Virus record (IMG/VR): IMGVR_UViG_2778261591_000009
DNA: 8,345 nt
Source of the DNA: a virus
Lineage: Duplodnaviria > Heunggongvirae > Uroviricota > Caudoviricetes
Reading direction: 5' to 3' (one strand)
The notes beneath the pieces were generated by a model. The model did not search any database, was not told the DNA's origin, and worked only from the letters and a program-made list of their open reading frames with translations. The position numbers were made by a program, and so were the translations under genes. Below are positions 1 through 8,345 of this stretch, one piece after another; the stretch's first letter is position 1; every line of letters begins with the position of its first letter.

Positions 1-401
1 TCTTGTATTTTTGTTTCGATAGCGCCAGATCTTTTAATGTCTTTTTCAGCACGATAATATGCCTGATCTGGGTCATACTTAAGAACATTAGGAAAATAGA
101 ACTGCTTCGCACCATATGCATCATAAACAGCCATAGAATGGCCTTGCACAGTTACGAATTTAGCAATCTGTCCGTTATATACCGGATATCCAGCAGCGTT
201 AATGATGATTGGTTGCGAAACAGGAACGTGAGAGCCGTCTTCGTTCTCTACATAAACCGGAATCTGGTTTTCAGGATTTACCGGGTCCGTGTCAATTTTA
301 CCGATATAAATTTTGCCATTGGCAACCGCTTTAAAAGAACGCGCCATAGTGAAAAGTTGCGAAGGCATCGATACGATCACATTGGCTGTAATGTCTGTCA
401 T
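1..401 (-). CDS. Tailspike protein, N-terminal head-binding domain (start codon in window; gene continues beyond position 1)
   Basis: Minus-strand ORF starting at ATG 399-401 (GGAG about 9 nt upstream) and running off the window edge with no stop; it is absent from the supplied ORF track, presumably because it is open-ended. My translation is [121 protein letters not shown]... This matches the conserved N-terminal head-binding domain of P22 gp9-type tailspikes as I recall it, and the resemblance stops after KYDPDQ. Confidence 0.88.
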
Positions 402-805: not shown

Positions 806-1027
806 TTAGTTATCAAAAAGTCCGTACGTTTCTTCTTCTTCAGGTGTAAGGGGAAGAATCTCTACTCTATCTATAGATACCTTTTCAATGTACCCATGAG
901 GTCTACTTAAAATTAAAGCTCTCTCATGCCACAGAACTCCAAGAATGTGATACCTCCCAGCATCGCCTTTTACCCTGGCTCTTCCTTTGATTCTTGGCGG
1001 CATAATGCCATATTTTTTCTTTGCCAT
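806..1027 (-). CDS. Hypothetical small protein (73 aa), translationally coupled to the upstream antirepressor-like gene
   Basis: ATG 1025-1027 overlaps the TAA stop (1027-1029) of the upstream gene as TAATG on the minus strand; it is the last gene before the terminator. Protein MAKKKYGIMPPRIKGRARVKGDAGRYHILGVLWHERALILSRPHGYIEKVSIDRVEILPLTPEEEETYGLFDN has a lysine/arginine-rich N-terminus and an acidic C-terminal tail. I do not recognise the family. Confidence 0.55.
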   Translation of the reverse strand: MAKKKYGIMPPRIKGRARVKGDAGRYHILGVLWHERALILSRPHGYIEKVSIDRVEILPLTPEEEETYGLFDN

Positions 1028-2851: not shown

Positions 2852-3103
2852 ATGTCAGAAAAAGACGAATCAAATTTCATAGAAAGATTTACGGTTAGAA
2901 TGCCTGACGGCATGCGTAGTGCTATTGCGGAAAGGGCTAAACGAAACGGTCGATCTATGAACTCAGAGATAGTTCAAATTCTTGAGGATGCGTTATCATC
3001 TGACGTCTCATCAGTAGACAAATCATTAGATCTTAAACAAATAAAATCTTTACTTGATAAAATTTCCAACGAGTTACTGGATAGAATCCCAAAAGACACA
3101 TAA
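2852..3103 (+). CDS. mnt: Mnt-like ribbon-helix-helix repressor, 83 aa (positional mnt)
   Basis: Track ORF 2804..3103 trimmed to the ATG at 2852-2854; the 16-aa upstream extension MMLLCFLLLICLANKK is hydrophobic and implausible for a repressor. Protein MSEKDESNFIERFTVRMPDGMRSAIAERAKRNGRSMNSEIVQILEDALSSDVSSVDKSLDLKQIKSLLDKISNELLDRIPKDT. The N-terminal half matches the Mnt/Arc RHH motif (P22 Mnt ...FRMPMEVREKLKFRAEANGRSMNSELLQIVQDALS as recalled), and the C-terminal half is heptad-like, consistent with a coiled-coil oligomerisation tail. It is transcribed divergently from arc, as mnt is in P22. The region is AT-rich. Confidence 0.8.
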   Translation: MSEKDESNFIERFTVRMPDGMRSAIAERAKRNGRSMNSEIVQILEDALSSDVSSVDKSLDLKQIKSLLDKISNELLDRIPKDT

Positions 3104-3153
3104 CAAAACATTATCATCCGGTGTTCTGCTCAAAACTAAGGAGTGGCTACTCA

Positions 3154-3792
3154 ATGAAAAAAATAGATATATATAGCGATACATCAGCCTATGTCATAGG
3201 CTCATTGGGTTTTTTAATTTTTTTTGTTTGGCAGTACCAGTCACTATCTCCAGGATGGCGATTTTTGGGGATGTCTTTGATATCACTTGGTGCAGGAATA
3301 GCAACGCAGGTGTTGATGTATCTCTTTAATGGATGGCTCTCAAAAAGAGTTGAGAAAAAAAGAGCTACTTCAATATGTAGAAGCCTAGCTATTCCAGAAG
3401 ACTCTACAGATCAGGATGATATTGCAAAATGTTGGCGGTATATGATTGCAAGATACTCAAATGAGTTACTGGCAAACAGACTGTCCGACTTAATCGGGAT
3501 CGTAGTTACCTCTGTTGGAACAATCATCAGTATAGGGATATCAATTTGGTATGTCGGGATGATTGTCTATTTTGTTTGGAATAGAGACTTCAATGAACCT
3601 TCCCTTCTTTTTATACCTTTATTTTTCAGGGTATTAGCATTCATATGTGAGTTATTGCTCTCTTTTTTCTGCAATGTTTTGTTCAACAGATACCCAGGTG
3701 AAGCAAGAAAGTTTAATAAAAACTATGATGAGTTAAGGAGAACAGATCCTTTTCTATCAAGCAAAGAGTTCCGCGATTCCATTCGCAATTAA
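3154..3792 (+). CDS. Polytopic inner-membrane protein (212 aa) at the sieA position; candidate superinfection-exclusion protein
   Basis: Track ORF 3121..3792 trimmed to ATG 3154-3156, with AAGGAG at 3138-3143. The protein has at least four hydrophobic helices (AYVIGSLGFLIFFVWQY, FLGMSLISLGAGIATQVLMYLF, LIGIVVTSVGTIISIGISIWYVGMIVYFVW, LLFIPLFFRVLAFICELLLSFFCNVLF). The gene is very AT-rich (about one-third GC in sampled stretches against about 45-50% in the late genes). It lies between the ejection gene gp16 and mnt on the mnt strand, which is the slot P22 uses for sieA. The functional call is positional; I cannot confirm sequence similarity to SieA from memory. Confidence 0.7.
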   Translation: MKKIDIYSDTSAYVIGSLGFLIFFVWQYQSLSPGWRFLGMSLISLGAGIATQVLMYLFNGWLSKRVEKKRATSICRSLAIPEDSTDQDDIAKCWRYMIARYSNELLANRLSDLIGIVVTSVGTIISIGISIWYVGMIVYFVWNRDFNEPSLLFIPLFFRVLAFICELLLSFFCNVLFNRYPGEARKFNKNYDELRRTDPFLSSKEFRDSIRN

Positions 3793-3813: not shown

Positions 3814-5655
3814 TTAGCGATCAGTTGCATCATTGGCAAGTATTGGTCTGATGGCATTTGCGGCGTTATTCAGCGCTCTTTCATAGGCTGGTGTTCCTGC
3901 TTTGGTGTTTGCCAAACGTAAGAGAGCATTCCTTGCTGCTTTAGACTCATACAAACGCATCATTGCACCAAAGCCAGCCTCAAGCCCCATTGATACGCCA
4001 AGAGTCGCAGTTGCGCCAATCGTCCTTATCCGGTTGGCTTGCGATTGCCCCGTCTGAGTTACTACATTTGCGGTGTCTGACCTTGCTGTTTGCTGTAGAA
4101 CTTCATGAAGAGAATCAAGCTCTTTCATGTGCTTTCCAGAAAAAATAGTGTTGTAAATTTCACCACCTGACTGAGATTTCAGCTTATTAACTTCAGTGAT
4201 GAACTTGGCTGGAGAATCACCGGCCTTTTCCGCTATTTTGCTGACGTAAGCTGCACGCATAGCATCTTTCCCTTTATCATCCAATGCGCTCCAGATTCGT
4301 TTCACGTCAGATGGTTTTCTGCTTAATACAACGGTATTTATAAGTTCAGGACTGGCTTCACTGCTTGCCTTGTTGAGCTTGTTAGCAATGTTTTTATTAA
4401 GCACCTTATTATAAACGTTTGCATAATCTGAATTTGCTTTAAGGTATTTTGCTGCGTCTGATGCACCGAGGTTTTTAGCAACTGCGTTACGAAGGTCTTT
4501 TGACATTGCATTCTCTACCATATTGGTAGCTGCTTTTGCCTGGTTGGGGAAGACCATAGAATCTCCCTGAACATTAGATCTAAATGCTGTTCTGTGCTGA
4601 CGCAAGAGATCAAACGTAACATCCAAATCAGTTGCAGGGTTTGCTAATTCTTCACGTAGGTTACGCAAGGATGTAAGCAGGCTTTGATTGGCTGAAGTCC
4701 CAAGCCGTTCCTGTCTTGCGATCGCTGTATTCAGAGCATTCATGGTATTTGTGGTATCAACTGCGGCATTACCCATTTTATTGGTGACGTCATTGATAAC
4801 AGCGCCAGCAGCATCCTTCCGCCCCCTTAACGTGGTGGTCAGAGATTTCACCACATCATCAGGGTTGTACTCACCAAAACGGTCAAAATAATTGCTTACC
4901 AGCTTACTACGCGTTGCATATTGCTCCGCTCGCTTTGAGCCTGTCCCGAGCAAAGCCCCCTCGGCATCCTGAGTAAGGCCGCGAGTGAAAGCATTTTTCG
5001 GCGGGATAACATCAGATGTCATTGGTGTCACGCCCATCGATTCTGAAGTGGCAATTTTCTTCGCCACTTCTGGCGCAATATCACCTTTTATAGCCGTTAT
5101 TCCACGCCCTATTCCCTTTGCTGCTGCGGAAAGAACACCCTGAGCGGCAAGGTTAACTCCGGCATTTTTAGCTGCATTTTGTGCGAAATCGCCTTTCTGA
5201 TTTGCGGCCTCTGCCAGTGATCCAATAGCCATGCTTCCTGCCGTTCCAATTCCTGGAACTAAATACCCGCCAATTGTTTCTCCAGCTTGAGCGTAGGGGT
5301 CTGTCGGTCTGTCTACTGGACGATAAACATCATCCAAAACTTTTGGCCCACCAAGCCCCTGACTGATTGCATTAATCAGACTTGCGCCACCCTGCAATAC
5401 GTCAAATGGTATGTTTACCAGACCACGACCAGCCTGTTCTGCAATTTGCCCTGCACTTTGACCACCAGTGAGCCAATCGCCAGCTTGTTGCATCAATGAT
5501 GGTTCTTCCCGTGTTGGTGCATTATTGGCCTGATTAACTGTTTGTTGCTGAACAGCCTGACCAGCAAAATACTCATCAATGGCGGTGCCAATATCTTCGG
5601 TGCTCGTACCATCAGGAAAGGTAAATGTCTTACCGTTTGCAGTTACTTTCATCAT
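3814..5655 (-). CDS. Ejection (DNA-transfer) protein, P22 gp16-like, about 613 aa
   Basis: Long minus-strand ORF with late-gene composition. Its tandem ATGs at 5653-5655 and 5650-5652 overlap the TGA stop of the upstream gene (ATGA-type coupling). It is third in a run of 224, 490 and 613 aa that matches the size and order of P22 gp7 (229), gp20 (471) and gp16 (609) immediately upstream of sieA/mnt. The sequence is Gly/Ala/Gln-rich with no obvious enzymatic motif. The assignment rests on synteny and size. Confidence 0.8.
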
Positions 5656-7124
5656 TCCACCGTAAATTGAATGCCTGATTTTGAGGTATATGATCCGGAT
5701 TGACTCTGCTGCTGTTGGGTATTTGTCGGTTGTTGGCTATTGCTCTGTTGTTGACTATTTGCAGCACTTGAAACCACCAAAGCATCATAAACGCGACCAG
5801 ACTGACCACGTAATGAGTTATATTGGCCCTGCATTTTTCGCATTTTTGTTTCAGTAGCAGCCTTGGAATCACCGGGCTGAGGCAGGTACATTTTGGAATA
5901 CTCCTGCATCTCTGGCAGAGTAATTGCTGCACCTGTTTCTGGGCGCAAAATTGCATACAAGGCGTCTCTCGCATTTACCATATATTGCTGCTCCGCTGGT
6001 GATAGGCTTAAATTTGCAATAGTCCCATCACCAAGAGAGCGATTTATTAATGCAACTCGCTTAGGGTCAATGCTTTTACTAAGCTGATTCATTGAGTCCA
6101 TTGAATCTTTTAATCGCAAAGCAAATCCCGCCGCCTTCTTGGAACCCTCATTAGCCTTATCTATGATGCTTTGCGCTTGTGGCAAGCTAATTGGTTTAAT
6201 GCCATCACCAGATATAGGTTGGTTTAGTTTTCCGGCTTCCTCGCTGCCATCGGTGTAATACTTAGTTACCGAGCCATCAGGATTGGTTTCAACCTTAAGT
6301 AATTTCTTAGCATTGGGATTAATTCCCGCCGCTGCCGCAAATGCCGCTGCACCATCTGGATCTACCTTTAACATTTGCGCGTACTGATTGTAATTCTGCA
6401 TTGCGGCTGTTGGTGCATATGCTGACGTTAACGCATTTGCTCGGCTAATATCCTGCCCTCTCGCCTGAAGTGCTTCACCAGCCTGATTGCTGCGGATTGT
6501 CTCTGCCAGTCTGCCTCGGTCAATCTCACGACCCGCCATCTTGTCCTGAACATTGAAGTAATCAATCGGACCAAGCGCGGCCATTCCAAGATGATCAACA
6601 AACTCACCAAATCCTGAAGGGTTCTGCTGATACATCTGAGCAACGTTGTTAGGGTCAACACCGACGCGAGTCAGTTCCTTGGCGTTGTTTTGCAGCCATG
6701 ATTGCATTGCTTCTGGAGACGAGGCTGCAAGGCGTGCGCCAGCCGCTAAGGTGCCGATAGAATTGCGCTGGTCTTCGTCTGCCCACTTCATACCAGACTG
6801 AATCTTCTCTAATTGACCAGGATATTTGGTCATCAGATCTCGCACCTGCTGTCGATCACCTGACTGGATGGCTGCCGCATATTCTTTTTGGAATGCAGCA
6901 TCCACTTCCTGTTGCTTTGCGGCTTGATATGTTTGAGCGACACTACCAAGCCCCTGCAACGCCTGAAGGCCGATGTTATTGCGACCTGAGCGCTCCATTT
7001 CGTTGTTCTGGCGAATATAGGCCAACGCCTCACTTACATCACTTGCCTTTGGCGCATTTGAGTTTTGCCCACCGATACCAGCAAGAAAGCCGCCTGAGTT
7101 GATTCCTTGTTGCCAAGTAGCCAT
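5652..7124 (-). CDS. Ejection (DNA-transfer) protein, P22 gp20-like, 490 aa
   Basis: Minus-strand ORF with ATG 7122-7124 and GGTGG 5-6 nt upstream; the stop at 5652-5654 overlaps the next start. It is the middle member of the 7-20-16 block by order and size. The C-terminus is Gln/Ser-rich ([21 protein letters not shown]). Confidence 0.8.
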
Positions 7125-7133
7125 ATTCCCACC

Positions 7134-7808
7134 TTAAAACAATGATCCAAGACCACCGATAATGCCGCCACCAATAGCGCCAACAGCCGTACCTATTCCT
7201 GGCACCACAGAGCCAATCATCGCCCCTGATGCCGCACCGCTCATGGCACCTCCCAAGGCTGATTGCAGTCCTGATGGTCGGTTAGCATTCGCCGCAGATG
7301 CTGCCGCCTGCTGTTGATACAGTTGGCTGACGTTGTTAGCGTAGTTCTGTCCGGCATTTGCCTGACCTGTAAGAGCACCAAGGCCGATATTTGCCAGATT
7401 GTTGTAGTTGTTCATCTGACCTGACAGCCAGTTTTGACCGAGTGTAGGTGCGATTGCTGCTAACTGGTTTCCTGTTGCTGTAGAGCCTAATCCACCCGTT
7501 GCCTCTGCTGCTGCCAGACTCTGGTAACGCGCCTGACCTGCAAGGTCTTTATACTGCTGAGAGTTGTAATACTGGTTAAGCGCCTGACCTTGCCCCTGAA
7601 GAGAGGAAAGATTCTGCAACTCTGATACGTACTGTTGAGCGAGTGGCGTGAACGGTGCGAGGTTTTGCATGTTCGTTTGCCACATTTCACGCTGCAATTC
7701 GATACCCTTTTCAGTTGCGCGTGCCTGGGCTTTTGAACCGCCATCACTGCCGCCTTTGCAGTAAACAGCTTTGCTGAGGTGCTTATTGGCAATCTGGAAA
7801 ATTAACAT
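7134..7808 (-). CDS. Ejection (DNA-transfer) protein, P22 gp7-like, 224 aa
   Basis: Minus-strand ORF with ATG 7806-7808 and GAGGAG 7 nt upstream. It has a glycine-rich hydrophobic C-terminus (GAMSGAASGAMIGSVVPGIGTAVGAIGGGIIGGLGSLF). It is the first of the three ejection genes by order and size. Confidence 0.8.
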   Translation of the reverse strand: MLIFQIANKHLSKAVYCKGGSDGGSKAQARATEKGIELQREMWQTNMQNLAPFTPLAQQYVSELQNLSSLQGQGQALNQYYNSQQYKDLAGQARYQSLAAAEATGGLGSTATGNQLAAIAPTLGQNWLSGQMNNYNNLANIGLGALTGQANAGQNYANNVSQLYQQQAAASAANANRPSGLQSALGGAMSGAASGAMIGSVVPGIGTAVGAIGGGIIGGLGSLF

Positions 7809-8262
7809 TCTTTAGCTCCTCGTATTTTGAGCGCGGTAACTGATAAATCGTGATGCCTACAGGCTTTCCATTGCTGGTATAAGCATCATCAAGGTGACCA
7901 ACACGGGTAGCGCCAAGCAAACGGATAATTGACCGTCCGTATTTCGTGGTGTCAGGAACCATGGTAATGCTGTTAAGGAATGGTGAGTTTTCGAGAAGCC
8001 ATTTGCAGAATAATCGATGCCCTTGCAGTGCATATTCGCCACGGAATCCGGGGTCGTACACCGCATGGCATTCAACAACGCTATGCCAGAAGTTACGCAC
8101 TTCATGCACTCCGACCAGCATCAGTCCTTCGTAGATGCCGAGGTATACCGCATCAGGCTTGATGTAGTATTTGTCTCCACTGTCTACGATATTCCCCGTG
8201 TTTGCCGGGTTGTTGAGGAATTCTGCAAGCTTCACCGGATTATCGATGAGCTTTATTTCCAT
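7783..8262 (-). CDS. Late protein at the gp14 position, 159 aa
   Basis: Track ORF 7783..8265 begins at a GTG; I place the start at the adjacent ATG 8260-8262, which has GGAG 5 nt upstream and overlaps the upstream TGA stop (TGATG). The 3' end overlaps the gp7-like start by 26 nt. Identity is by synteny only (P22 order 26-14-7-20-16). Confidence 0.7.
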   Translation of the reverse strand: MEIKLIDNPVKLAEFLNNPANTGNIVDSGDKYYIKPDAVYLGIYEGLMLVGVHEVRNFWHSVVECHAVYDPGFRGEYALQGHRLFCKWLLENSPFLNSITMVPDTTKYGRSIIRLLGATRVGHLDDAYTSNGKPVGITIYQLPRSKYEELKNVNFPDCQ

Positions 8263-8345
8263 CACTGCTCCGCAATGATTTTGATGGTTGTGGCAGTAAA
8301 TGCCGCACCATTAGACTGAATGGTTAACGTGCTGCCATTTGTGGC
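8262..8345 (-). CDS. C-terminal end of an upstream late gene (tail-needle gp26 position by synteny); 5' part lies beyond the window
   Basis: Open minus-strand frame entering from the right edge, reading ...ATNGSTLTIQSNGAAFTATTIKIIAEQ and ending at TGA 8262-8264, which overlaps the next start codon. It is absent from the ORF track because it is truncated by the window. The functional call is positional only. Confidence 0.5.
   Translation of the reverse strand, partial: ATNGSTLTIQSNGAAFTATTIKIIAEQ

Follow-up and report, generated by a model that had tools for sequence, protein, structure and literature searches.

A type B sieA gene downstream of an Mnt-type repressor gene in the immI region of a P22-like Escherichia coli prophage

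The two-gene segment and its membrane protein

We analyzed an 8,345-nt stretch of viral DNA (IMG/VR record IMGVR_UViG_2778261591_000009; hereafter, the window), which is 100% identical to chromosomal P22-like prophages of two bovine E. coli strains, UTAK-1 and OkiPb01711. Our subject is the segment at positions 2852-3792, where a gene for a ribbon-helix-helix (RHH) repressor of the Mnt type is followed by a gene for a membrane protein which, judged by its sequence, is the superinfection exclusion protein SieA of the already described type B. The RHH gene occupies 2852-3103 on the plus strand (ATG at 2852, stop codon at 3101-3103) and encodes 83 residues; sieA, on the same strand at 3154-3792 (ATG at 3154, stop codon at 3790-3792), encodes 212. 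They are separated by exactly 50 nt (3104-3153), in which a Shine-Dalgarno sequence, AAGGAG, lies at 3138-3143, 10 nt before the sieA ATG. An earlier note on this DNA, made from the sequence alone, had reported the same spacing and orientation, and its coordinates were confirmed. An alternative GTG start at 3121 would give a protein of 223 residues, but the start at 3154 is favored because the Shine-Dalgarno sequence, the homologues beginning MKK and the RefSeq annotation all agree on it.

The GC content of the segment is 36.8%, compared with 45.2% in the whole window, 43.6% in the left flank and 47.9% in the late genes of the right flank, so that the segment is indeed, as first noticed, more AT-rich than the late genes beside it. 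The 941-nt stretch of minimum GC in the window begins at 2786, and stretches of this length with GC as low as that of the segment make up 1.5% of all, every one of them overlapping the 2852-3792 region. P22 sieA is likewise AT-rich (33.7% GC).

The product of the 212-codon gene is present in RefSeq as WP_021575669.1, a "hypothetical protein". A profile search, the check proposed in the earlier note, matched it to PHROG 7745, "superinfection exclusion SieA-like", with an E value of 1.6e-20 over profile positions 15-159 of 164. BLASTP against P22 SieA gave 28% identity over 148 residues (E 2e-24), and a tblastn search of 50,697 phage records found as relatives only sieA genes of the P22 type (38 records, 27% identity, E 3e-11). 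The closest characterized relative is much nearer: 211 of the 212 residues are shared with EcHS_A0321 (WP_000717773.1) of prophage HS1 in E. coli HS, and the sole difference, a conservative one, is L62 in the window as against I62 in HS1. The SieA motif FxRYPxEAxxFNK is matched exactly, as FNRYPGEARKFNK, at codons 177-189 (3682-3720, plus strand), just after the fourth transmembrane helix and on the predicted cytoplasmic side. It is invariant in an alignment of 11 type B proteins with P22 SieA, and belongs to 20 invariant positions which the type B proteins have in common with the P22 protein. The slot is the expected one as well: sieA is convergent with a gene 16 homologue, with 21 nt between the stop codons (22 nt in P22), and it falls between the homologues of genes 16 and 9, the tailspike gene being at the left end of the immI block. 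The earlier note had placed a membrane protein at the P22 sieA position while leaving homology unconfirmed; the homology is now borne out by the profile and pairwise matches, the motif and the near-identity to HS1 SieA.

Assignment to type B follows the classification of Leavitt, Woodbury, Gilcrease, Bridges, Teschke and Casjens (mBio 2024; PMC10883804), who distinguished three SieA sequence types and named the HS1 protein as type B, characterized by an N-terminal extension of about 30 residues with one extra transmembrane segment. Our protein clusters with HS1 SieA and the extension is visible in the alignment. HS1 SieA is equally long, and its gene stands at the same place in a P22-like prophage, convergent with gene 16, and has the same Shine-Dalgarno sequence. 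In comparison to P22 SieA (type A, 162/164 residues, NP_059639.1), which occupies the same slot in the same orientation, the window protein is homologous over the three core transmembrane helices and the motif, but it is only 27-28% identical, carries about 30-44 extra N-terminal residues containing a fourth transmembrane helix, and has a conserved C-terminal tail of 16-20 residues (ELRRTDPFLSSKEFRDSIRN).

Our finding is correct but already known: work published in 2024 covers the SieA family and its type B, the slot they occupy, the predicted topology and the phenotype. Searches of the protein against local copies of Pfam-A, NCBIfam and PADLOC gave no significant match, and PHROGs alone recognized it; type B matches in a large protein database do bear the precomputed tag PF26849.1, an entry not in our local Pfam copy. 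The type B allele (98-100% nucleotide identity) is carried by 21 of 5,426 complete E. coli genomes, and in all 21 RefSeq calls its product a "hypothetical protein". As local Pfam, NCBIfam and PADLOC fail to recognize it too, SieA of type B will be missed by automated defense-system surveys. A megablast search of the two-gene unit against the 50,697 phage records returned a sole match, to 77 nt of gene 16; the absence of the type B allele from isolated phages in this collection agrees with the published observation that type B is known only from prophages (PMC10883804).

Kyte-Doolittle hydropathy and an AlphaFold2 model (mean pLDDT 74.7, built from 11 sequences) both give four hydrophobic helices, at residues of about 12-28, 37-58, 111-141 and 151-176, in line with the at least four predicted in the earlier note. 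Lysine and arginine residues cluster in the loop at 59-110 (10 residues) and in the C-terminal tail (9 residues). This concentration predicts that both termini are cytoplasmic, as would be the 59-110 loop, with two periplasmic loops of about 8 residues each. When the model was compared with BFVD and PDB by Foldseek, no match had an E value under 0.5, and the structure therefore offers no independent lead to the mechanism. The T4 Imm protein is an inner-membrane blocker of DNA injection; Imm and HK97 gp15 are, like SieA, small membrane proteins of phages or prophages that keep DNA from crossing the cytoplasmic membrane, but no sequence relationship to blockers of this kind was detected, nor any fold relationship in the Foldseek search. 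HK97 gp15 acts from a prophage, as an injection blocker in the inner membrane (introduction of PMC10883804).

The Mnt-type gene, its putative control region and transcription of sieA

The RHH protein matches the Pfam Arc family (PF03869) with an E value of 1.4e-17 and is 55% identical to residues 7-44 of P22 Mnt. In its structure model, RHH helices at 21-32 and 36-49 are followed by a linker and a C-terminal helix at 61-77, in which L61, I64, L68, I71 and L75, as read from the sequence, follow an a/d-type spacing; this helix is conserved in full-length relatives of 81-83 residues found in Salmonella, Citrobacter, Hafnia and Cronobacter. P22 Mnt has 83 residues too, the same predicted plan (RHH, linker, C-terminal helix) and the same divergent orientation relative to arc-ant. 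On the other hand, the C-terminal third of the window protein is unrelated in sequence to its P22 Mnt counterpart, without similarity to the Mnt tetramerization domain, and there are differences in the recognition residues of the beta strand (ERFTVRMP against PHFNFRMP). By family we have here an Arc/Mnt repressor gene, located where P22 has mnt. The label "Mnt-type" is sound with respect to family and position, while the likeness to P22 Mnt itself is limited to the RHH domain.

A second Mnt-like RHH gene lies on the plus strand at 537-791 (84 residues), adjoining the start of the tailspike gene. Its product and P22 Mnt share 47% identity over 73 residues, C-terminal domain included, so that over the full length this protein is closer to P22 Mnt than is the 2852-3103 protein. 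No inverted repeats were found upstream of this second gene, between 395 and 545. A database protein of 81 residues (P0027) is a naturally occurring chimeric Mnt: its N-terminal part, through the start of the RHH domain, resembles the 537-791 protein, and its C-terminal part is identical to the 2852-3103 protein, which indicates that the two Mnt types have recombined inside the RHH domain.

The arc homologue at 2555-2728 on the minus strand is divergent from the Mnt-type gene, and the 123-nt region between them contains a pair of putative promoters that overlap. The Pant-like promoter, TTGACA-16-CATAAT at 2775-2802 on the minus strand, is directed toward arc and ant, is near-consensus (11 of 12 matches) and has the placement of P22 Pant. 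The Pmnt-like promoter, ATGCCA-16-TATGAT at 2781-2808 on the plus strand (9 of 12 matches), is directed toward mnt and sieA. P22 has overlapping divergent promoters too. Two adjacent 21-bp palindromes of one sequence family, ATGACATCAccaTGATGTCAT (2748-2768) and ATGACACCAttaTGATGCCAT (2767-2787), are candidate Mnt/Arc operators: they stand at the positions of P22 Omnt and Oarc relative to the Pant-like promoter, and the two matches found in the region compare with none in any of 200 shuffles. Around them, TCATAATG occurs in three copies, at 2743, 2774 (minus strand) and 2791. In our own reading, the sequence ATGACATCA-N3-TGATGTCAT of the candidate operator is unlike that of the site annotated in P22. 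We consider the palindromes and the TCATAATG copies a candidate operator set with a specificity unlike that of P22 Omnt/Oarc. By analogy with P22, repression of Pant by the RHH protein and maintenance of lysogeny would be its predicted role. An Rfam 15 scan of the whole window at E <= 1 gave no match, a result by which a sar-like antisense RNA between arc and ant is neither found nor excluded.

In P22, the interval between mnt and sieA accommodates orf59a, a terminator and a separate promoter, PsieA, while the window has the 50-nt spacer only. We found no terminator between mnt and sieA, nor between sieA and gene 16, and no stable hairpin in 3104-3153 (fold z-score -0.93). A mosaic joint can be placed at about 3102-3108, as homology to other sieA type B contexts begins there or later. 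A promoter-like site with an upstream TG, TAAACA-18-TAAAAT, lies at 3034-3063 on the plus strand, inside the 3' end of mnt (9 of 12 matches); it might be an internal promoter for sieA, but we give it little weight because the region had six such sites against 4.0 +/- 1.7 in shuffles. When five genomic contexts of sieA were aligned, conservation was seen only from about 30-50 nt upstream (the Shine-Dalgarno sequence and, in three contexts out of five, a CATTAT box), which does not support a shared promoter. HS1 sieA is preceded by what we read as a good promoter, TTGATA-17-CATTAT; the window has in common with HS1 about 46 nt upstream of sieA, but does not share the TTGATA -35 sequence. Since there is neither a terminator nor a convincing private promoter between the two genes, and the HS1 -35 sequence is not shared, mnt and sieA are probably co-transcribed in the window.

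Terminator-like hairpins inside sieA (3186-3202 and 3245-3273) were also considered and set aside as chance, their folding being no better than that of shuffles. At 3186-3225, covering sieA codons 11-24, a perfect 7-bp hairpin (AGCCTAT-GTC-ATAGGCT) precedes, by a few bases, two T-runs, which encode the Phe-rich first transmembrane helix.

Probable exclusion at injection and the alternatives to it

What is known of SieA function comes from the work cited above. When HS1 sieA and the 106 bp before it were inserted by themselves into the Salmonella chromosome, phages P22, L, MG40, MG178 and LP7 were fully excluded, P22 hybrids with the ejection proteins of L, Sf6 or CUS-3 were blocked, and a hybrid with those of HK620 was partly blocked (PMC10883804). 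Three further results were obtained with type A SieA only: exclusively inner-membrane localization (shown for FLAG-tagged P22 SieA only); a block of DNA injection and of K+ release, unrelated phages being unaffected; and escape mutations, which map to gp16 and gp20 (PMC10883804). The exclusion ranges of types A and B were indistinguishable in the tests done, a comparison that covered only P22-like phages of Salmonella and four hybrids (PMC10883804).

We consider it very likely that the segment represents, in a P22-like prophage of E. coli, the arm of immI that is expressed from the prophage, with an Mnt-type repressor gene and, after it, a type B sieA whose product excludes P22-like phages at injection. 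According to this model, SieA would be made in the lysogen and reside in the inner membrane with its four transmembrane helices. A superinfecting P22-like virion would eject gp7, gp20 and gp16 to build a trans-envelope DNA conduit, and SieA would prevent the inner-membrane end of this conduit from forming or opening, keeping the DNA out of the cytoplasm. The most likely route is interference with how the conduit made of gp20 (periplasmic) and gp16 (membrane) assembles or functions, and direct contact of SieA with these proteins is suggested by the escape genetics. SieA itself would be non-toxic and independent of the upstream gene. The RHH protein probably binds the 2748-2787 palindromes, which would shut the Pant-like promoter of arc-ant and favor its own rightward promoter, and the latter, the Pmnt-like one, probably also carries transcription into sieA. 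Exclusion by the window allele is predicted from its near-identity to the tested HS1 allele.

Several points weigh against this reading. The exclusion phenotype was shown for HS1 SieA, which is separated from the window allele by the L62I difference. Direct contact of SieA with gp16 or gp20 is a proposal drawn from escape genetics, and the authors themselves allowed for indirect action by way of a factor in the host inner membrane, YajC for example (PMC10883804). The AlphaFold2 model of SieA is only of moderate confidence (pLDDT 74.7; 11 sequences). The promoter and operator assignments are consensus matches, in a region where promoter-like sites numbered six against 4.0 +/- 1.7 in shuffles. 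Finally, as the C-terminal part of the RHH protein is unlike that of P22 Mnt, and a more Mnt-like gene is present at 537-791, more than one repressor is a candidate for control of the Pant-like promoter.

The indirect route deserves the most attention among the alternatives, even if we regard it as unlikely. In this scenario, raised by Leavitt et al. (PMC10883804), SieA would mask or sequester a host inner-membrane factor needed by the conduit, for instance YajC, and would not touch gp16 or gp20 at all. Types A and B are only about 24-28% identical, yet their target ranges are indistinguishable against very divergent ejection proteins, a finding that a conserved host target would account for more readily; the extramembrane mass predicted for SieA is, moreover, almost entirely cytoplasmic. 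The only consistent locations of escape mutations, however, are gp16 and gp20, and the ejection proteins of HK620 confer partial resistance. The escape mutants also still fail to plate on a yajC- host (<10^-7, Table 2, PMC10883804), so the escape changes do not bypass the requirement for YajC. Another alternative is a toxin-antitoxin-like or abortive-infection pair, in which the membrane protein would be a toxic effector restrained by the DNA-binding protein. The earlier note had seen a loose resemblance to a toxin-antitoxin-like pair, one that the P22 layout made unnecessary, and here the gene layout is all that speaks in favor: a small RHH protein, with weak Pfam matches to the FitA-like, HicB and CopG antitoxin RHH families, is encoded 50 nt upstream on the same strand. 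But the window-type mnt gene precedes sieA in only 13 of the 21 genomes with the type B allele. Elsewhere the neighbor is an HTH/LexA-family gene (HS, where it encodes a 213-residue helix-turn-helix protein in place of the 83-residue Mnt-type one, and H22), a divergent gene for a P63C-domain protein (Z1322HEC0003) or a divergent small hypothetical open reading frame (30345_1#247), and the upstream DNA common to these contexts goes down to about 30-50 nt. Mnt and sieA are not an obligate two-gene unit. A strain that excluded phages was obtained with HS1 sieA cloned without its neighbor, and growth was affected little or not at all by P22 sieA alone (PMC10883804). Pfam, PADLOC and NCBIfam yielded no toxin or defense-effector match, and the RHH gene is otherwise explained as an immI repressor gene with operators beside the Pant-like promoter. 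As the upstream genes vary and sieA cloned alone is tolerated, we reject the pair as highly improbable.

Still less credible, and in our view practically negligible, is the idea that the 212-residue protein is a different membrane effector, as the earlier note had allowed, and thereby an unrelated moron in the sieA slot. The slot is variable among P22-like phages, sieA being carried by only 22 of 66 sequenced phages (PMC10883804), identity to P22 SieA is low, and local Pfam, NCBIfam and PADLOC are without a match. Against this, the homology is significant by profile and pairwise tests and includes the 20 invariant positions with the signature motif, and the protein is 99.5% identical to one with a demonstrated SieA phenotype; PHROG 7745, BLASTP to P22 SieA and the near-identity to the HS1 protein with its published phenotype together refute it. 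Within the SieA reading itself there is one variation to be mentioned, which we hold to be rather improbable, more so than the host-factor route. The extra N-terminal helix of type B, its conserved C-terminal tail (ELRKxDxLLSSKEFRDSI) and, in this lineage, the apparent joining of the gene to the mnt transcription unit could endow it with some property absent from type A. If so, one might expect a broader or altered range of targets among E. coli phages yet untried, or sieA expression that shifts with Mnt through the immI switch. In any case, one sieA type B allele standing beside four different upstream genes is a natural series for the wiring of sieA expression into different prophage control regions.

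The surrounding prophage and its relatives

The layout of the window is that of the end of the P22 late operon joined to the immI region, in reverse. To the right of sieA, all on the minus strand, are homologues of gene 16 (3814-5655), gene 20 (5652-7124), gene 7 (7134-7808) and gene 14 (7783-8265). The gene 16 homologue, encoding an ejection protein (PHROG 770), is 75% identical to P22 gp16 over 610 residues, and its product is of the protein class targeted by SieA. In this homologue, of the two P22 gp16 residues altered in escape from SieA, G532 is conserved, and the position of P546 (about residue 549) is occupied by alanine. The gene 20 homologue, for another ejection protein, is an intact open reading frame of 490 codons matching PHROG 917 over its full length (E 3e-176), with a mosaic C-terminal half: its 48% identity to P22 gp20 is confined to the N-terminal 238 residues.

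On the left side, the arc homologue (57 residues, by RefSeq coordinates; Pfam Arc E 1.1e-11; 42% identity to P22 Arc) is the first gene of an arc-ant operon. In P22 there is a single ant gene, whereas the window has two different antirepressor-type genes in tandem downstream of arc, both on the minus strand: one at 1843-2481, with BRO-N and P22AR_C domains (PHROG 245), and one at 1027-1842 (RefSeq start 1755), matching PHROG 1726, anti-repressor. They are followed by a conserved 73-codon open reading frame (806-1027, minus strand; PHROG 4977) and, beyond the second Mnt-like gene, by the 5' end of the tailspike gene (1-401, minus strand) at the left end of the immI block. The immI block in the window is expanded, with two Mnt-type repressors and Arc.

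RefSeq (PGAP) lists two of the genes as "incomplete" pseudogenes: the Mnt-type gene, of which it annotates the first 51 codons, and the gene 20 homologue, of which it annotates the N-terminal 217 codons (5852-6004 and 9474-10124 in record L004). Both are intact in the window (83 and 490 residues) and have full-length relatives, and the pseudogene calls are probably an artifact of the mosaic C-terminal parts.

Two other occurrences of the unit may be added. In a near-identical prophage of E. coli O111:H- 110512 (L002), IS1203 copies (4083-5296 and 8474-9687) break the gene for the BRO-N antirepressor and the region of genes 16/20; mnt and sieA are intact despite these insertions, so that here the exclusion gene outlives the decay of virion genes. 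In two assemblies of E. coli from hospital wastewater, the mnt-sieA unit is found together with P22-like virion genes on a circular "plasmid" of 39.9 kb (NZ_CP146561.1, L008, 39,940 bp, and NZ_CP146567.1); the circle most likely represents the genome of a P22-like phage that had been excised or was replicating.

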